A stretch of 64,000 nucleotides of DNA from a bacterium (GTDB lineage: Bacteria > Hinthialibacterota > Hinthialibacteria > Hinthialibacterales > Hinthialibacteraceae): assembly GCA_016125385.1 (NCBI GenBank), contig WGLV01000015.1, forward strand, positions 2,555 through 66,554. The letters run 5' to 3'. Both the position numbers and the translations under genes were made by a program. Below are positions 3,232-11,161 of this stretch, in pieces. Every line of letters starts with the position of its first letter. Positions within the stretch are counted from its first letter, which is position 1. A model generated the notes under the pieces. It was not told the DNA's origin. It was given only the letters and a program-made list of their open reading frames with translations, and made no database searches.

Positions 3232-3696
3232 TCACATCGAGCGGCGTACTTTTTCAAGCGCGCGGCAAAGCCGGTTGATTTCGTTTTCGCTGAAATCATT
3301 CATGATGGCGTCGATGCGCTCCAGATAGACTTTTTCGGCCTTCTCAAGCAACTCGGCGCCGGCTTTCGTCAGGCGGACGCGATTGACGCGCCGGTCTTTC
3401 GCGTCAGCGGTACGCTCCACCCAGCCCGCCTGCTCCATCCGGTCGATCAGCCCGGTTACGTTGGAGCGATTGACCAGCAGCATGTCGCCCAGCCGGGTCT
3501 GATCGCTCTCCTGATTTTCAGATTGATACTTCAACAGCATCAGCATATTGAACTGCGAATCGGTCAGTCCAAGCGGACGCAAAATGCGGTAGGCTTCTTT
3601 TTCGAGCAATTTGCCGGTATAGAGCATATTGAGAACGGCTTCATGCGATTTGCCTTCGATGGGCGTAAGAAAATGGAGTTCGTCTTGAAGGGGCAT
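3232..3696 (-). CDS. MarR family transcriptional regulator
   Basis: Winged HTH pattern LTDSQFNML...RSNVTGLIDRMEQAGWVER...DRRVNRVRLT. Confidence 0.92.
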   Translation of the reverse strand: MPLQDELHFLTPIEGKSHEAVLNMLYTGKLLEKEAYRILRPLGLTDSQFNMLMLLKYQSENQESDQTRLGDMLLVNRSNVTGLIDRMEQAGWVERTADAKDRRVNRVRLTKAGAELLEKAEKVYLERIDAIMNDFSENEINRLCRALEKVRRSM

Positions 3697-3935
3697 TTTT
3701 TTACCTGATTTGATAGATTGATGTGATGAAATGTGGTAGAATTACGGCGAACGTAACAACAGCGTCCTGTAACAGGATAGCGATTACGCTCTGAATTGTG
3801 TAGAAGTATACATTGTTTTGCAGGCTGTGGGGAACGTTTGATCCAAGGCCGCCTCTGGAACCCTCGAGATGTCTCGTTCTTCATCAGGCAACCGGCTTCG
3901 GCCGTTATTTATGAATTATTTGTGTGGATGGTTCA

Positions 3936-4613
3936 ATGGCGAATGACATTCTGATATCCAGGCGGCAGGCGGTGCGGGCGTCCAGCGTAATTGGTCCAGG
4001 AACCGAGCTGGAGGGAACGCTGCACAGCGAGGGCGACGTGCTGATCGAGGGGGCGTTCACTGGCGATCTTCACGTTCTCAATCATCTGACCATACGGGAA
4101 CCGGGTAAGGTGAGCGGCTCGATTGAGGCGGGAGAAGCCTCCATCGAGGGCCATACCCACGGGCCGATTCTGGCGAGCGAGCGCGTGATTCTGCACGCGT
4201 CCAGCCAGGTCCAGTCCGACGTCGCGGCGCCCCGCATCGTGGTTGAGCCGGGCGCCCGGGTGAAAGGGCGATTTTGCATTACGCCCGATGAAGAAGAACG
4301 CAGGCGTTTTCAGGGCAAACCGGCGTCAAAATCGGCCAGAAGCGAAGACGGCAAGCGTGACGTGCGCTTTACCGGTGAATTTTCCGGCGTCAAAACCGTC
4401 GCCCTGCTGGGTGATTTTAACGGTTGGGATGAAAAAGCGTCGATCCCGTTCCATGCCTCGGGAAACGGAACCTGGTCGTTGCGTCTGAAACTGCCTCCCG
4501 GCCGGTATGAATATCTGTTTCTCGTAGACGGCGAACCCAGGCCGGATCCGGGGAATCAGCAACGCGTAAAAAACGAGTTCGGAGGGGAGAACTCGGTGCT
4601 GGTGGTGGAATAA
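3936..4613 (+). CDS. Bactofilin (polymer-forming cytoskeletal) domain fused to a C-terminal CBM48/AMPK-beta-like glycogen-binding domain
   Basis: N-terminal beta-helix IGPGTELEGTLHSEGDVLIEGAFTG...IVVEPGARVKG. C-terminal VALLGDFNGWD...GTWSLRLKLPPGRYEYLFLVDG...NEFGGENSV. Confidence 0.85.
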   Translation: MANDILISRRQAVRASSVIGPGTELEGTLHSEGDVLIEGAFTGDLHVLNHLTIREPGKVSGSIEAGEASIEGHTHGPILASERVILHASSQVQSDVAAPRIVVEPGARVKGRFCITPDEEERRRFQGKPASKSARSEDGKRDVRFTGEFSGVKTVALLGDFNGWDEKASIPFHASGNGTWSLRLKLPPGRYEYLFLVDGEPRPDPGNQQRVKNEFGGENSVLVVE

Positions 4614-4690
4614 TACCAATCCTTATTTGATCCGAACATCGAGTATGATATCGGTACAGTACGAGCATCGTTTTGGAAAGGGGTCAGGGG

Positions 4691-5245
4691 GTGCGCACGC
4701 GGGGATTCACGTTGATTGAACTGCTGATCGTCGTCGCGATTATCGGAATACTCGCGGCGATCGCCGTACCGAATTTTCTCAACGCCCAGATCCGGGCCAA
4801 AGTCGCGCGCGTCGAGGCTGATCTGCGCGCCATGAAAACCGCGATCGAAATGTATCATGTCGACAATAACGGATACCCGCCCTCCTGTACGCTGGAAGTC
4901 GTGGGAAACGTTCAGTTCCGCGCAGGGGAGATATTCAAACCCGTCGAGTACGCCTCTGTGCCCGCCGTTGACCCGTTCAACACCGCTGAAGGCGCCCGGC
5001 CGGGTACGACCTTCGCCGCGAATGAATATTTTTACATCAATGATGACAAAGAGTGTCCCTGGACCAAAGACATTCTGATCTGGACGATTGACAACGTGCC
5101 CAACTCCCCCTCTCATGCGGCGTATTTTCTTGCCAGCCAGGGACCGGATAATCTTTCTGAAGTTCAGGTGCGAGTCGTATCGCCCATCTATAACGCCTCG
5201 AACGGATTGGTCAGCCAGGGAGATATCATCGTCTTCGGGCCGTGA
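4691..5245 (+). CDS. Type II secretion pseudopilin / type IV pilin-like protein with N-terminal methylation motif
   Basis: RGFTLIELLIVVAIIGILAAIAVP prepilin cleavage motif. GTG at 4691 follows a G-rich RBS; the ORF track starts at 4673. Confidence 0.88.
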   Translation: MRTRGFTLIELLIVVAIIGILAAIAVPNFLNAQIRAKVARVEADLRAMKTAIEMYHVDNNGYPPSCTLEVVGNVQFRAGEIFKPVEYASVPAVDPFNTAEGARPGTTFAANEYFYINDDKECPWTKDILIWTIDNVPNSPSHAAYFLASQGPDNLSEVQVRVVSPIYNASNGLVSQGDIIVFGP

Positions 5246-5479
5246 TAAGGTTGTTTCTTCTCCAAATGACTTATCTATCATTGGAAAAATATTAAAATAA
5301 GAATAATACAGTGACTATAAATCAATGATTTTCGGTTGACCTGCCCTGAATTTCGATTCGTAACCTTTTTTGTATCAGTAGAATCCATGTTCTCGCTATA
5401 TTTTGAGGCGAGAAGGGAATAATTATTGCTTTAATCTGAATCGATTAAGTCAATTTCATTATGTAGATACATAAAAATT

Positions 5480-6871
5480 ATGTTGTACGCTGCGATTGGC
5501 CTTGTCTGTATGCTGCTGGTTTTACTTTTGAGGCGCGGAGATACCCGCTCGTCCTCAATCGAAAAAAAACGTATTTCTCCAGTGGATGAAAAATTTCTCC
5601 GCCTGTTCGTCAAGCATTGCCCAGCCGCCGTCGCCATGTTTGACCGTGAGATGCGGTATGTCATGGTCAGCGACCGATGGCTCGATGATTACCGGTTGCA
5701 TGAACCCTCTATTATCGGGAAAACCCATTATGAAGTGTTCCCTGAAGTTCCCGAGCGATGGAAGGCGATTCATCAGCGCTGTCTCACTGGCGTGTCCGAG
5801 CGATGCGATGAGGATTCGTTTGAACGCGTCGATGGAACGCTCGAATGGCTGAAGTGGGAGATTCAGCCGTGGCATAATTCCAGCGGTGAGATCGGCGGCA
5901 TCATCATGTTCACCAATGTGATCACCGACCGCAAAAACATCGAAACCAGCCTCCATGAAAAAGAACAGCGGCTCAACGCGGTGGTGAACAACGTCGTGGA
6001 TGGAATTATTACACTGGATTCGTCGGGGTTCATCCTCACCGCCAATTCCAGCGCGGGGCGATTGTTTGGATGCCAACCCGCCGACCTGGTGGGGCTGCCG
6101 CTAAACTCTCTATTACTCAGACAGGATAAAAATATCAAGTCGATACTCGACTCTCGTCTGTCGAGCGGCGATGATTGCTTCGCCGATGTGTTTGAAATGT
6201 CGGCGGTTAAAGACACTGGTGTGCAGTTCCCGATAGAAATCGGTTTCAGTATGACGAATTTCAACGGCCGGACCGTGATTACCTGCATCCTGCGCGATAT
6301 CACCGAACGCAAGCGTCAGGAAGAGGAGATAAGCCGAATCGCGTATTATGATTCGCTGACCGGCTTGCCTAACCGGACGCTGTTTCAGGATCGTCTCAGC
6401 GTGGCGCTGGCCAACGCCGCGCGCAAACAGGATCAACTGGCCGTCATGTTCATCGATCTCGATGGTTTCAAACGGATCAATGACGAACTGGGACACGCCG
6501 CGGGCGATGAGGCCTTGATTGAGATTGGCCGGCGGCTGCGAGGCGCCATCCGTGATTGCGACACCGCCGCCCGTCTGGGAGGCGATGAATTCGTTGTGCT
6601 GCTGCCCGCCATTCACCACCGCGACGCCGCCGCCAGAGTGGCTCATCGGATCCATCGCTCGTTTCATGAAGCCATCGTGTTTGGAGAACAAAGTTTCTTT
6701 GTCGGTGGCAGCATCGGAATCAGCATTTTCCCACAAGATGGTCAGGATTCGGAAAAACTGGTCAAAAGCGCCGACGCCTCCATGTATCAGGCAAAGCGCT
6801 ATGGCTCAGGATTCTTCGTATATGCTTCCGATCTTTCCTCGGCGCCTGGCGCATTGGCCGAACACGTCTGA
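5480..6871 (+). CDS. Membrane-anchored PAS-PAS-GGDEF diguanylate cyclase
   Basis: N-terminal transmembrane segment and two PAS-like regions ending in DITDRK/DITERK, then YDSLTGLPNR, FIDLDGFKRIND and an intact RLGGDEF. Confidence 0.92.
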   Translation: MLYAAIGLVCMLLVLLLRRGDTRSSSIEKKRISPVDEKFLRLFVKHCPAAVAMFDREMRYVMVSDRWLDDYRLHEPSIIGKTHYEVFPEVPERWKAIHQRCLTGVSERCDEDSFERVDGTLEWLKWEIQPWHNSSGEIGGIIMFTNVITDRKNIETSLHEKEQRLNAVVNNVVDGIITLDSSGFILTANSSAGRLFGCQPADLVGLPLNSLLLRQDKNIKSILDSRLSSGDDCFADVFEMSAVKDTGVQFPIEIGFSMTNFNGRTVITCILRDITERKRQEEEISRIAYYDSLTGLPNRTLFQDRLSVALANAARKQDQLAVMFIDLDGFKRINDELGHAAGDEALIEIGRRLRGAIRDCDTAARLGGDEFVVLLPAIHHRDAAARVAHRIHRSFHEAIVFGEQSFFVGGSIGISIFPQDGQDSEKLVKSADASMYQAKRYGSGFFVYASDLSSAPGALAEHV

Positions 6872-6985
6872 ATTTGCTGCCGCTGATTCCGCTTTTTTTC
6901 TCAACCATCGCAAGCCGCTTCCCCCCACGCTTTTCCATGTGCTAATTTATGGATGCAGCGTAATACGGTATTTGGGGGGAGCATC

Positions 6986-8185
6986 ATGAGCAACGGCAAC
7001 GAAGCGCTGTACCAGCAACGTCTCGCACGGTATACCGCCGCGATGCGTAATGAAAAACCCGACCGGGTTCCTGTCAGGCCCTTCGCGGCCGAGTTCGCCG
7101 GCAAATACGCCGGCTTCACCAATCAGCAGATCACCCATGATTTTTCCAAAGCCTTTGAAGCGGTTCTGAAGTGCTGTGCCGATTTCGACTGGGACGCCGC
7201 CGTGGGCAACATGGTCTACGTCTGGACCGGGCTGACCGAGGCCGCCGGGCTGAAATATTACCTGACGCCGGGAATCAACGCTCCCGCCAACGCCTGCTTT
7301 CAATATCTGGAGCCGCCCGATGAAGCGGGCGCTCACATGAAAGAAGACGAGTACGACGCGCTGATCGCCGACCCCACCGCGTTTCTCGCCAACGTATGGA
7401 TGCCGCGCGTCTCGCGGGACGTATGCGCGCCCGGCGAACCCACCACGTTTCGCAACAATATGTCGTGGCTCAAAGGCGGTCTGGCGATGCTGGCCTACTT
7501 TCAGGGCTTTGGCGTTCAGCACGAACGCATGCGTCGCGAGTGTGGAACCGTACCGGCCATCATGGGCTGCCTGAAGGCTCCCTTCGATATCATCGCCGAT
7601 AAACTGCGCGGCTATGGTCTGCTCTGCATGGACCTGTACCGCCGTCCTGAAAAAGTAGAAGCGGCCTGTGAAGCGCTGGCCCCCCACATGATGCACTACG
7701 CGCTGGCCGGCGCCGATCCTGATAAACGGATTCCGATTTCGTTATGGCTTCATCGCGGCAGCGTACCCTTTCTCTCTCCCGCGCAGTTCGAACGATTTTA
7801 CTGGCCCACGCTCAAGGCCATTCTCCTCGAACTGCATCGCCGGGGACATCAGGTTCTCTTTTACGCGGAGGGCGACTGGAACCCGAACCTGAAATACATC
7901 GCCGAGCTGCCCGATCGCTGCATCGTCTATCACGTCGACCGGGGCGATCCGTTCGAGGTGCATCGCGCGGTGGGGCATAAATTCTGCCTGAGCGGCGGGC
8001 TGCCCAATGAATTGCTTGCGCTGGGCGAACCCGATGAAGTCAAAGCGTATTGCAAAAAACTGATCGACGGTCTCGCGCGCGACGGCGGTTATATCATGGA
8101 TGCGGGCGCCATCATGCAGGACGACCCTCGCGTTGAAAACATCCGGGCGATGACCGAATTCACCCGTGAGTACGGGACGTATTGA
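6986..8185 (+). CDS. Uroporphyrinogen decarboxylase-family (MtaA/CmuA-like) protein
   Basis: EKPDRVPV start motif, PFDIIADKLRG, FLSPAQFERFYWPTLK, and GGYIMDAG near the C-terminus. Clustered with a corrinoid protein. Confidence 0.82.
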   Translation: MSNGNEALYQQRLARYTAAMRNEKPDRVPVRPFAAEFAGKYAGFTNQQITHDFSKAFEAVLKCCADFDWDAAVGNMVYVWTGLTEAAGLKYYLTPGINAPANACFQYLEPPDEAGAHMKEDEYDALIADPTAFLANVWMPRVSRDVCAPGEPTTFRNNMSWLKGGLAMLAYFQGFGVQHERMRRECGTVPAIMGCLKAPFDIIADKLRGYGLLCMDLYRRPEKVEAACEALAPHMMHYALAGADPDKRIPISLWLHRGSVPFLSPAQFERFYWPTLKAILLELHRRGHQVLFYAEGDWNPNLKYIAELPDRCIVYHVDRGDPFEVHRAVGHKFCLSGGLPNELLALGEPDEVKAYCKKLIDGLARDGGYIMDAGAIMQDDPRVENIRAMTEFTREYGTY

Positions 8186-8195
8186 AAGGGGAGCG

Positions 8196-8369
8196 ATGAT
8201 GGATGAACAACAAGCGCCGATGCGGCCGCCGGGATGCTGCGTGCCGTGGGATGAACGCCGCGCCGAATGCGGCGAGTTGCAGGGCGATGAGGAAGTGGCC
8301 CAGCGCGTGTGGGAAGACGTCGACCAGTTGGGCTGGCTCTATATCTGGTCGTGCCTGATCGCGTTTTAA
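8196..8369 (+). CDS. Small (57 aa) hypothetical protein with a PPGCCVPW motif
   Basis: AAGGGGAG RBS before the ATG at 8196. It fills the gap between the UroD-like and corrinoid genes on the same strand. Confidence 0.72.
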   Translation: MMDEQQAPMRPPGCCVPWDERRAECGELQGDEEVAQRVWEDVDQLGWLYIWSCLIAF

Positions 8370-8416
8370 GGAGAGAAACGCCGCCTCCGCGGTGAAAGTG
8401 AAATGAGGATGCAGCC

Positions 8417-9049
8417 ATGACGAATCAACAACGGCTCACCAAAGCTATTTTGGAAATGAACGAACCCGGATCGATCGCCCTCATGCGTGAAATGCTCGAC
8501 GCGGGCGAGAGCGCCGAATCGGTGATGACCTGCTTTCAGGACGCGCTGACTGAACTGGGACGCCGGTATGAAGCCGGGGAATGTTTTATCCCCGAACTGA
8601 TGATCGGCGGCAAGATCATGGAAGAAGCGATGAGCGTTCTTCAACCGCTGATCGAGACCAGCCGTACTCTCACGCCGCCCAAAGGCTGCGTGGTGCTCGG
8701 CACGGTTCAGCACGACGTCCACCACATCGGCAAGGACATCGTCGGCATGATGCTGCGCGGCGCGGGCTATGAGGTGGTCGATCTGGGCGTCAACGTTTCG
8801 CCGGAGCGTTTCGTCGAGGCCGCGCTCAAGCACAAGCCGGTGATGGTGGGGTTGAGCGTATTGATAACCACGGCCTATGCGTCGGTCATGAAGACGGTGA
8901 AGGCGCTTGACGAGGCGAATGTGCGGAACGGATTGAAAATCGTCGTGGGGGGCGCGGCGGCGACGGACATGCTCGCCGAAAAAACCGGCTGCGACTTTTA
9001 CGGCAATTCAGCCACCGACGCCATCAACTACGTAAGAGGCGAAAACTGA
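8417..9049 (+). CDS. Corrinoid (cobalamin-binding) protein, MtaC/MttC-like
   Basis: B12 cap domain (LGRRYEAGECFIPELM), B12-binding motif DVHHIGKDIVGMMLRGAGYEVVDLG, and VVGGA. Confidence 0.9.
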   Translation: MTNQQRLTKAILEMNEPGSIALMREMLDAGESAESVMTCFQDALTELGRRYEAGECFIPELMIGGKIMEEAMSVLQPLIETSRTLTPPKGCVVLGTVQHDVHHIGKDIVGMMLRGAGYEVVDLGVNVSPERFVEAALKHKPVMVGLSVLITTAYASVMKTVKALDEANVRNGLKIVVGGAAATDMLAEKTGCDFYGNSATDAINYVRGEN

Positions 9050-9140: not shown

Positions 9141-9271
9141 TCCCGTTCGGTCCAGCCCATCCCCCGTCTCGATGCGGGGGATTTTCATGTCAACGCACCG
9201 CGCAACCGCATGACGGAAACCACCGGCCATTGACCTTATTCAACCAGTTAGATCAGGAAATAAAAGAACTT

Positions 9272-11080
9272 ATGAAAACGCTTCTCCGCAATGAAAGCCT
9301 TCGCAACATCGCCATCATCGCCCACGTCGACCATGGTAAAACCACCTTGGTCGATCATATGTTCCGCCAGTGCGGCGAGTTCCGCGAAAATCAGTCGGTG
9401 GAAGACCGCGTCATGGACAGCATGGACCTCGAACGCGAACGCGGCATCACCATCGCGGCCAAAAACTGCTCCGTCCACTGGAAAGGGGTAAAGATCAACA
9501 TTCTCGACACCCCCGGCCACGCCGATTTCGGCGGCGAGGTCGAACGCGCGCTGATGATGGTCGATGGCGCGGTGTTGCTGGTCGACGCGTCGGAAGGGCC
9601 GCTGCCGCAAACCCGTTTCGTGTTGAAGAAGGCGCTGGAGGCGAACCTCAAGATCATCGTCGCGGTCAACAAGATCGACCGGAAAGACGCCCGCCCGCAG
9701 GAAGTCATCAACGAGATTTACGATCTCTTTATTGATCTCGACGCCAACGAAGAACAGATCGAATTCCCGCTGCTCTATGCCATCGGCCGCGAGGGAATCG
9801 CTCAAACGACGCTGGAAGAGAAGGGCGATAGTCTGGCGCCGTTGCTCGACGCGATCGTCGGCGAGGTCCCGGCGCCAACCTACGATCCGGACGAGCCGTT
9901 TCAGATGCTGGTGTCGGACCTCGATTATTCGGAATTTCTCGGCCGGCTGGCGGTGGGCAAGATCGCCAACGGCGAAGTGCACTGTAACGACGATCTGGTG
10001 TGCATCGGTGTGGATGGTAAAGCGCGTACTCTGCGGGTGAATAAATTACAGGCCTACGACGGCGTGAAAATCTCCGACGTCGAGCGATCGCTGGCGGGCG
10101 ATATCTGCATTATGGCGGGCATCGAAGACGTCCACATCGGCGACACCATCTGTAATAAGACCACGCCCAAGGCGCTGAAGCGCATCACCGTCGACGAACC
10201 CACTGTGGCGATGAAATTCGGCGTCAACTCGTCGCCGTTTTCAGGGCGTGAGGGCAAGTTCGTCCAGTCGACGAAAATCCGCGAACGCCTGATGAAAGAG
10301 ACGCTCAGCAACGTCGCGCTACGGGTTGAAGACACCAGCGATCCCAATGTGTTCATGGTGAAGGGACGCGGCGAATTTCAGATGGTGATCCTGATCGAGA
10401 CCTTGCGCCGCGAGGGCTACGAGTTGAGCGTCGGGCGTCCGCAGGTCATTTTCCGTGAAGAAAACGGCGCGGTGATCGAGCCCATCGAACACCTGTTCGT
10501 CGATTGCGACGAGCATTTCGTTGGCATCGTGACCGAGAAACTCTCCGGACGCAAAGGCCGCATGATCAATCTCGTCAATCACGGTTCGGGCCGCGTCCGC
10601 ATGGAGTTTTCCATCCCGTCGCGCGGGCTGATCGGCTACCGTAACGAGTTCCTGACCGATACCAAGGGAACCGGTATTTTGAATTCGTACCTGGAAGGCT
10701 ACGAACCCCATCGCGGCGATTTTCCGTTGCGTCTCACCGGATCGCTGGTGGCCGACCGCCAGGGCGACGCCTCGCCGTACGCGCTGTTCAATCTGGAGCC
10801 GCGCGGCGTGTTGTTCATCCCGCCCAACACGGCGGTGTATGAAGGCATGATCGTGGGCGAACATAACCGCGACAATGACCTGAACGTCAACGCCACCAAG
10901 GAAAAGAAACTCACCAATATGCGCGCCGCCGGCCGCGATGAAAACGTGACTCTCACCCCGGTGACGCCGATGACGCTTGAACGCGCCATCGAGTTCATCA
11001 AAGACGACGAACTGGTTGAGATCACGCCCAAATCGATCCGTCTGCGCAAGTCGATTCTGCCCGCCAGTCAGCGTAAATAG
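9272..11080 (+). CDS. typA: Translational GTPase TypA/BipA
   Basis: [41 protein letters not shown] and the C-terminal [11 protein letters not shown]. Confidence 0.97.
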
Positions 11081-11161
11081 ACCCCCGGCGGCCGCAAAAA
11101 AGACTGGCGTTTTCTCCGCTTGCGGTCATAATCGGCATGGACTTGTCATCCTGCGGCTACG

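Follow-up and report, generated by a model that had tools for sequence, protein, structure and literature searches.

What use might a bacterium have for a polymer-forming protein that carries, on a flexible arm, a domain of the kind associated with glycogen binding? The question is raised by a 225-amino-acid open reading frame (ORF) in a 64,000-nucleotide stretch of contig WGLV01000015.1 (assembly GCA_016125385.1) from a member of the Hinthialibacterota; the whole stretch is referred to here as the window. The ORF encodes a bactofilin fused to a carbohydrate-binding module (CBM) of the CBM48 type found in the beta subunit of AMP-activated protein kinase (AMPK), an architecture that is previously undescribed and phylum restricted and whose CBM has, in every known member, exchanged part of its sugar site. 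We favor, at a probability of roughly 0.4, a cytoplasmic bactofilin polymer on which CBM48-type domains, each on a leash, would form a multivalent array, with an alpha-glucan such as glycogen as the most likely ligand.

The fusion protein and its family

The gene and the parts of its product, with the evidence for each, are as follows.

3936 to 4613 (including the stop codon), plus strand: bactofilin-CBM48 fusion gene, 225 amino acids (ORF list and sequence; both Pfam domains above their gathering thresholds)
3984 to 4280, plus strand: bactofilin (DUF583) beta-helix domain, residues 17 to 115 (Pfam PF04519; matches to 2n3d and 6ria; all-beta in the AlphaFold2 model)
4281 to 4316, plus strand: family-specific cap segment I-T-P-D-x-x-E-R-E/R, residues 116 to 127, with a predicted helix at 119 to 127 (alignments and AlphaFold2)
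4317 to 4355, plus strand: flexible charged linker, residues 128 to 140 (predicted local distance difference test [pLDDT] score below 50 for residues 128 to 138; low identity)
4356 to 4607, plus strand: CBM48/AMPK-beta-type beta-sandwich, residues 141 to 224 (Pfam PF16561; Foldseek; HMMER residue mapping)

The ORF opens with ATG at 3936 and closes with TAA at 4611 to 4613; a small uncertainty attaches to the start codon, with in-frame GTG alternatives at 3924 and 3972, and ATG 3936 is favored because it lines up with the start in syntenic relatives. The same protein is recorded in the protein database (label P0001) with both PF04519 and PF16561. Its N-terminal half matched PF04519 (Bactofilin) over residues 17 to 112 with 87.2 bits against a gathering threshold of 27.9 (E = 9.4e-25), covering profile positions 1 to 96 of 98, and the beta-helix domain is therefore complete; a PDB sequence search with this half returned BacA of Caulobacter crescentus (2n3d, E = 5.5e-10) and the Thermus bactofilin (6ria, 5.7e-7). 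The C-terminal half matched PF16561 (AMPK1_CBM) over residues 151 to 224 with 42.0 bits against a threshold of 26.8 (E = 1.1e-10), and its PDB matches were the CBM48 of pullulanase (5ot1, 6e-6), the AMPK beta1 CBM (4yef, 1.8e-5), SEX4 (3nme, 2e-4), and the AMPK beta2 CBM. PF02922 (CBM_48) scored 21.8 bits, slightly below its cutoff of 22.4, and was marked as weak or faint in several relatives. The motif GDFNGW occupies residues 159 to 164 and LPPGRYEYLFLVDG residues 186 to 199, and the segment between the two domains is charged (DEEERRRFQGKPASKSARSEDGK). NCBIfam yielded solely subthreshold, partial matches to the N-terminal CBM48 region of GlgB (E = 0.01 to 0.1; 11 to 14 bits against cutoffs above 460), which reflect the CBM48 fold, and membership of the branching enzymes was rejected. 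There is no further bactofilin or CBM48 ORF in the 64-kb window.

An AlphaFold2 model built from eight family members (mean pLDDT, 81) comprises an all-beta helix at residues 17 to 115 in regular windings of short strands (pLDDT of about 88 to 95), a short helix at 119 to 127, a disordered stretch at 128 to 138 (pLDDT below 50), and a beta-sandwich at 141 to 224 (pLDDT of about 85). The single domains are confident, yet the predicted template modeling score (pTM) is 0.52, which suggests that the domains are neither set in one orientation to each other nor joined by a fixed interface. The best Foldseek matches in the PDB were the AMPK beta2 and beta1 CBMs 4yee_A and 1z0m_B (E = 1e-7), with a TM score of 0.88 relative to the target, a root mean square deviation of 1.7 A over 86 columns, and 30 to 33% identity, followed by SEX4 (3nme and 4pyh); these AMPK CBM structures are cyclodextrin complexes. 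CBM matches dominate the best 50, among which there was no bactofilin structure, and the beta-helix assignment therefore rests on the model and on sequence homology to solved bactofilins. Sequence and predicted fold place the protein among the bactofilins, and by sequence threshold and predicted fold its C-terminal domain is a CBM48/AMPK1_CBM. The initial annotation of the window, which had read the 225-residue ORF as a complete bactofilin beta-helix, a charged linker, and a CBM48-like domain, was thus borne out by Pfam, the PDB search, and AlphaFold2.

A word-indexed search of 5.8 billion proteins added seven sequences, 42 to 51% identical, in which both Pfam domains occur. When 1.84 billion cluster representatives were scanned exhaustively with HMMER, 18,197 matches had an E value of 1e-3 or below, nearly all of them to the CBM only; the best 150 of these included 12 single-stretch, full-length fusion matches of 181 to 245 residues, nine of them new, and within those 150 the fusion occupies at least 12 clusters at 50% identity. 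The total stands at at least 17 distinct fusion sequences (eight from the word-indexed search and nine from the HMMER scan), 31 to 54% identical to the query and alike in domain order and length (210 to 245 residues), which come from independent assemblies in NCBI, ENA, JGI, and Logan. An artifact, whether a chimeric assembly or two genes run together by a frameshift, is already refuted by this recurrence across divergent sequences in which both domains are conserved; we found no point in its favor, and its probability is negligible. The initial annotation had itself raised the possibility of a chimera absent from relatives.

A genome scan found the full-length fusion in seven GTDB species-representative genomes, of which two, SURF_12 and Ch114, are labeled Candidatus Omnitrophota; SURF_12 has been assigned to phylum OLB16, equivalent to the Hinthialibacterota and earlier placed within the Omnitrophota (PMC9324843). 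One member derives from Candidatus Hinthialibacter antarcticus and is annotated as a "polymer-forming cytoskeletal protein". Cluster look-ups traced all members to metagenome-assembled genomes (MAGs) or metagenomes of uncultured bacteria, and those that are named taxonomically all belong to OLB16/Hinthialibacterota; the family looks like the trait of one candidate phylum. The full DNA of the window was present in one hot-spring metagenome among public runs, and the runs containing the fusion locus were DNA runs, with no RNA run among them. The public names of the members, "hypothetical", "CcmA (bactofilin family)", and "polymer-forming cytoskeletal protein", ignore the C-terminal domain, and no report in the literature searched mentions a bactofilin alongside a carbohydrate-binding module, a glycogen-binding domain, or CBM48. 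In the initial annotation, too, the fusion was not known as a characterized architecture.

Conservation is distributed unevenly along the protein. Mean pairwise identity over 16 aligned fusion members (alignment A2) is highest in the CBM (49.7%), followed by the bactofilin domain (37.0%) and the cap segment at residues 116 to 127 (36%), and falls to 17% in the N-terminal tail and 10.8% in the linker. The segment after the beta-helix ranges from 19 to 38 residues across the family; its composition is either charged or dominated by Pro, Ala, and Ser. In the cap, P117 is nearly invariant in A2, and T116 and R122 are invariant solely in an alignment of eight closer relatives (A1). The regional pattern has the signature of two functional domains on a flexible leash; the fusion is old and under purifying selection, with the CBM as its most constrained part.

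The sugar site and its possible ligands

In rat AMPK beta1, residues W100, K126, W133, L146, and T148 contact bound beta-cyclodextrin, and each mutant markedly loses glycogen binding (PMC2642990). Three independent, gap-free HMMER alignments (to AMPK beta1, AMPK beta2, and pullulanase 5ot1) place Y-K-F-F-V-D-G-Q-W on the Y-L-F-L-V-D-G-E-P of the fusion protein and make W164 the equivalent of W100, L194 that of K126, P201 that of W133, F215 that of L146, G217 that of T148, and N219 that of N150. The CBM profile was aligned to 608 domains from 177 collected proteins, 17 of them from fusion proteins and 591 from others. None of the 17 fusion proteins has lost W164 or N219, F or Y stands at position 215 in 15 of the 17, and the Gly that replaces T148 is likewise present in 15. 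The fusion CBM thus lacks the complete canonical set of AMPK sugar-contact residues; on this residue pattern the site is best described as remodeled, neither intact nor decayed, with one half strictly preserved and the other replaced clade-wide. Such an exchange of two sugar contacts within a conserved site amounts to a natural experiment on what CBM48 binding needs.

The preserved half argues for continued ligand binding at the canonical face: the W164 platform and the threading loop [F/Y]215-G-G-E-N219 are kept in essentially all members, and we infer that the site has been altered rather than lost. An alpha-glucan would be the most likely ligand, with glycogen as the obvious candidate in the cytoplasm; the nearest structural and sequence relatives bind alpha-glucans. 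Binding at each site would be weak or of altered specificity.

Several observations weigh against an alpha-glucan ligand. Position 194, the equivalent of K126, is Leu in 16 of the 17 fusion proteins and Gln in the other, and position 201, the equivalent of W133, is P, H, Q, K, N, E, A, or S and never Trp, with a DG...DP loop that is free of Trp in all 17; two of the five AMPK sugar contacts have thus been replaced in every member. Among the 591 nonfusion domains, Lys is found at the K126 position in 86% and Trp in the DG...DP loop in 76%, both occur together in 69%, and neither occurs in 7%. The premise of the initial annotation that CBM48/AMPK-beta domains bind glycogen is therefore not simply transferable, and the CBM48 fold alone does not establish glycogen binding. 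In plant PTST, mutating both Trp equivalents together abolishes starch binding (PMC4339375), and for the CBM48s of GH13 debranching enzymes, whose canonical sites are incomplete, carbohydrate binding has not been demonstrated according to a review of starch-binding domains (PMC6243121). This type of CBM also appears, from sequence, to be widely used outside the cytoplasm, where there is no glycogen. Finally, a glycogen-metabolism gene adjoins the fusion gene in 0 of 11 neighborhoods, and these neighborhoods show no partner gene common to the entire family.

Much of this can equally be turned in favor of the main rival, in which the CBM48-like domain has been repurposed as a protein-protein adaptor and the polymer recruits a specific protein client, by means of a domain encoded in cis in place of a disordered tail, without binding any glycan. 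The K126 and W133 equivalents were lost family-wide while L194, N213, and the GGENS loop became fixed; for CBM48s with an incomplete canonical site no sugar binding has been demonstrated (PMC6243121), and linkage to glycogen genes is missing from the 11 neighborhoods. The AMPK-beta CBM also docks on the kinase lobe, and AMPK holoenzyme structures were among the Foldseek matches; characterized bactofilins, moreover, recruit protein clients, PbpC being an example (PMC12448750). We nevertheless consider an adaptor somewhat less likely than the glucan reading, since the invariant W164 and the [F/Y]215-GG-x-N219 loop together make up precisely the remaining half of the sugar site, glycan-binding sites typically have a Trp platform exposed to solvent, the nearest structural relatives found by Foldseek are all glucan binders, and no conserved neighboring gene hints at a client. 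If the domain did prove to be a protein adaptor, it would serve as a warning against reading "glycogen-binding" from AMPK1_CBM/CBM48 matches in bacterial genomes; such domains are very common in predicted periplasmic proteins.

A different ligand for the same face is a further alternative. The CBM might bind some carbohydrate or polymer other than glycogen, whether a second kind of cytoplasmic glucan, a malto-oligosaccharide of short length, or an envelope precursor linked to sugar on the inner side of the membrane, and the polymer would then organize that material or its biosynthetic machinery. The closest CBM-only homologues inspected carry, as read from their sequences, either lipoprotein boxes (P0009 to P0012) or a transmembrane helix preceded by a cytoplasmic segment at the N-terminus (P0013 to P0018); they are predicted to be extracytoplasmic, and their ligand is thus unlikely to be intracellular glycogen. 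With CBM-only homologues so abundant in predicted periplasmic proteins, the ligands of these domains cannot all be glycogen, and a site that has been remodeled and yet strongly conserved would suit a change of ligand, as would the pairing of a bactofilin domain with three CBMs in a signal-peptide-bearing, Omp85-type protein (P0163, described below). We found, however, no characterized CBM48 with a ligand other than an alpha-glucan in the literature searched (PMC6243121), and family-wide linkage to envelope-polysaccharide genes is lacking, a glycosyltransferase gene at locus L076 being a single, nonrecurring case; this explanation is distinctly unlikely.

Polymerization, cell location, and gene neighborhood

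In the beta-helix, the residue aligned to the interface phenylalanines of BacA (F130) and TtBac (F105) is V109, and the position is occupied by V, L, or I family-wide, that is, by a hydrophobic but not an aromatic residue. The substitution F130R abolishes the assembly of BacA (PMC12448750); an aliphatic side chain at this position would be compatible with self-assembly. No signal peptide was found in any fusion member, and the N-terminal tails are short (6 to 16 residues) and for the most part acidic or polar (MANDILISRRQ, MAETDPKR, MDDRNANR, MNDERIIE, and MIEDRLPE); because of these two features the protein is predicted to be cytoplasmic, in the compartment where glycogen is. The sole positive link to glycogen is the MAG of Ca. 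Hinthialibacter antarcticus, which has been reported to encode glycogen synthesis (PMC9324843). With glycogen synthesis in a member genome and no signal peptide on the protein, a cytoplasmic alpha-glucan would therefore be available in principle.

The initial annotation had also placed the protein in a membrane-associated scaffold, for which the sequence offers no support. Membrane targeting of bactofilins follows the consensus MFSKKKK, and Phe2 and Lys4/Lys7 are required for the membrane binding of BacA (PMC12448750). Compared with MFSKKKK, a feature that is typical of bactofilins and not obligatory, the N-termini of the family lack the canonical targeting sequence, and the polymer is therefore probably not anchored to the membrane by itself.

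The mechanism that we propose on this basis begins with a beta-helix that, we infer, polymerizes end to end without nucleotide, as in characterized bactofilins. Each subunit would bear its folded CBM48/AMPK-beta-type beta-sandwich on a flexible, nonconserved leash of about 20 to 40 residues, and the resulting filament or sheet, probably free of the membrane, would present a dense multivalent array of CBMs. Avidity along the polymer would make a weak single-site interaction effective, and the role of the protein would be to gather, place, or partition glycogen particles, or else to concentrate enzymes bound to glucan along the filament. By analogy, this combination of a scaffold with a CBM48, the logic of which is established in plant PTST (PMC4339375), lends the proposal support. 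The glycogen-granule tether or scaffold envisaged in the initial annotation is thus upheld in part: the conserved two-domain fusion and the kept half of the sugar site speak for it, and the loss of the K126 and W133 equivalents and the absence of linkage to glycogen genes speak against it, which leaves it a plausible and reasonable hypothesis and not a conclusion.

The position of the cap segment invites another explanation, in which the CBM acts as a regulatory sensor and its occupancy by glycogen or an oligosaccharide alters polymerization, much as AMPK is inhibited by way of its CBM, and so couples carbon storage to a cytoskeletal function such as cell shape or division. The AMPK CBM is an allosteric glycogen sensor (PMC2642990), and the conserved cap helix (residues 116 to 127) lies directly on the C-terminal end of the beta-helix, one of the two polymerization interfaces. 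A leash, however, fits the nonconserved, variable-length, predicted-disordered linker better than allosteric coupling does, and the pTM of 0.52 with confident individual domains suggests that there is no fixed interdomain interface; we regard a sensor as very unlikely.

A bolder form of the array proposal would be a dedicated "storage-granule cytoskeleton" in the Hinthialibacterota: a membrane-independent bactofilin polymer whose array of remodeled, low-affinity CBM48 domains captures, organizes, or partitions glycogen, or senses the glycogen load and couples it to polymer assembly. We rate this rather unlikely; if it were true, bacteria would for the first time be seen to have a cytoskeletal system devoted to storage granules of polysaccharide, and the fusion would be the first bactofilin to carry its own cargo-binding domain. 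To our knowledge, no system for the active organization of bacterial glycogen granules has been described, and, if the cargo is glycogen, the fusion protein would be a candidate for such organization in a bacterium.

The features around the fusion gene are as follows.

3232 to 3696, minus strand: MarR-family regulator, divergent (Pfam MarR, E = 1e-12)
3797 to 3812, no strand assigned: conserved 16-bp intergenic element TGTGTAGAAGTATACA, pattern TGTrTAsAwGTnnACA (alignment of four syntenic intergenic regions)
4673 to 5245, plus strand: prepilin-type N_methyl (T2SS-G-like) protein, 60 bp downstream of the fusion gene (Pfam N_methyl, E = 2e-8)

The MarR arrangement is conserved at loci L001 to L004 and L007, that is, within the Hinthialibacter-like subclade only; it is absent from L005 and L006, and no comparable flanking ORF was seen by eye at L010 to L015. 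The element TGTGTAGAAGTATACA is the sole well-conserved block in the four aligned regions between the MarR and fusion genes and is a candidate MarR operator or promoter element on this pattern of conservation. A perfect palindrome, TCCTGTTACAGGA (3765 to 3777), was rejected as the operator, being specific to the window and not conserved in relatives. The N_methyl gene holds the same position at L001, L003, L004, and L007 and is unlinked in more distant members; the gap between 4613 and 4673 contains no terminator-like site on the plus strand, and the fusion and N_methyl genes may be cotranscribed.

The window and the loci of P0002, P0003, and P0005 share the order MarR (divergent), bactofilin-CBM, N_methyl, URO-D, small ORF, B12-binding corrinoid protein, and RimB/RimK. 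The downstream trio (6953 to 9049, plus strand, in the window; also at L001, L003, and L007) consists of a URO-D-family protein (410 residues), an ORF of about 56 to 67 residues, and a B12-binding corrinoid protein (210 residues), looks like a corrinoid-dependent methyltransferase module, and is followed by RimB-like and RimK ATP-grasp genes. Relative to its syntenic relatives, the window has two insertions, a PAS-PAS-GGDEF diguanylate cyclase (5480 to 6871, plus strand) and a 616-residue translational-GTPase-like ORF (9230 to 11080, plus strand) that resembles BipA/TypA by eye. Long ORFs, in other frames or on the opposite strand, also overlap the real genes within 3933 to 5281, among them one of 241 residues at 4556 to 5281 (minus strand) and one at 4326 to 4619 (minus strand), and were taken to be ordinary spurious ORFs.

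In distant members (P0007, P0008, P0049, P0056, P0101, and L011 to L015), the neighbors are entirely different, and the genes flanking the fusion gene are usually unrelated or convergent, which leaves it on its own. MarR and N_methyl were accordingly rejected as obligate partners, since they are syntenic solely in the Hinthialibacter-like subclade (the window, L001 to L004, and L007); neither occurs in that arrangement at L005, L006, L076, or L078 (by Pfam) or at L011 to L015 (by eye). At L077 an N_methyl gene lies two genes from the fusion (10499 to 11089), and at L014 a prepilin-like ORF lies on the opposite strand (4414 to 5001, minus strand). N_methyl proteins near the fusion in several lineages have near-identical N-termini (GFTLIELLIVVAIIGILAAIAVPNF.NAQIRAK) at differing orientations and distances; the family may simply be very abundant in these genomes, and its proximity to the fusion could then be due to chance. 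The MarR/N_methyl neighborhood has the look of synteny within a lineage and not of a functional unit. The idea that the fusion gene shares a conserved operon with glycogen genes was likewise rejected: there were no glg genes in the 11 neighborhoods, and when the 64-kb window was scanned for motifs of GlgA, GlgP, GlgC, and GH13, nothing convincing emerged.

In three distant members, the divergent genes immediately upstream of the fusion gene (L010, 5553 to 6020; L012, 4983 to 5711; L014, 4980 to 5819; all on the minus strand) share the motif HELSHAYHH...EYFAELSEAFFGTNDYYPFVRAE, and their product looks like an HExxH metallopeptidase. It has about 240 to 280 residues at L012 and L014; the ORF at L010 has 155 and may be truncated. 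The L012 protein had no Pfam match. A thioredoxin-like ORF of about 120 residues (BrxC family) lies beside this gene at L010 and L012.

Comparison with known systems

The canonical bactofilins (BacA and BacB of C. crescentus, TtBac, CcmA of Helicobacter pylori, and BacM and BacN-P of Myxococcus xanthus) share with the fusion protein a complete PF04519 beta-helix in a small single core. They differ in having an MFSKKKK-type peptide, which the fusion lacks; a short, disordered C-terminal tail where the fusion has a folded, 85-residue domain on a linker; and, in BacA and TtBac, a Phe at the interface position where the fusion has aliphatic V, L, or I. Cargo binding by the fusion, if any, would be in cis, whereas theirs proceeds through separate client proteins. 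The characterized bactofilins covered by the literature consulted recruit their clients in trans, and the fusion would be a compact polymer-plus-adaptor whose cargo and avidity are directly testable in vitro.

The CBMs of AMPK beta (1z0m, 4yee, and 4yef) and the CBM48 of SEX4 have the same fold as the C-terminal domain, and the equivalents of W100, N150, and the loop at 146 to 150 are conserved in the fusion; in contrast, all 17 members carry Leu or, in one case, Gln in place of K126, and Pro, His, or another residue in place of W133. The fusion CBM is bacterial and joined to a polymerizing domain, whereas those of AMPK and SEX4 are carried on a kinase scaffold or a phosphatase. The closest sequence relatives of the fusion CBM, at 41 to 52% identity over the domain, are bacterial stand-alone or tandem AMPK1_CBM proteins annotated as "glycogen-binding domain-containing" or "isoamylase early set domain-containing"; these are uncharacterized, lack a bactofilin domain, and, unlike the fusion, mostly keep the Lys (86%) and the loop Trp (76%). 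AMPK1_CBM/CBM48-like domains are very abundant in bacteria, as the 18,197 matches of the HMMER scan attest, and the CBM-only forms include two-module lipoproteins, one-module membrane-anchored proteins, and proteins of about 480 residues with four tandem modules; a 1812-residue protein of Ca. Epulonipiscium viviparus contains 18 CBM-matched stretches.

One metagenomic protein, P0163 (972 residues), is the sole other architecture seen to pair PF04519 with PF16561 and constitutes a second, independent pairing. It combines a signal peptide, a PF04519 domain (40 bits, above threshold), three AMPK1_CBM modules, and a C-terminal Omp85 barrel, and JGI names it merely "CcmA (bactofilin family)". Its CBMs keep the canonical K...W residues, unlike those of the fusion, and prediction makes it an exported protein with an outer-membrane anchor; it belongs to a different protein family, probably with a different role.

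The closest functional analogue is found outside the bacteria, in PTST1, PTST2, PTST3, and FLO6 of plants, which, like the fusion protein, are noncatalytic and join an oligomerizing or interaction module to a C-terminal CBM48, in their case so as to target enzymes to starch as the storage glucan (PMC4339375, PMC6243121). Their N-terminal module is a coiled coil that is not homologous to bactofilin, they are plastidial and eukaryotic, and starch binding by PTST depends on the two canonical tryptophans, both of which it retains, whereas the fusion is without the second. The likeness is accordingly one of analogy, not of homology or family membership.

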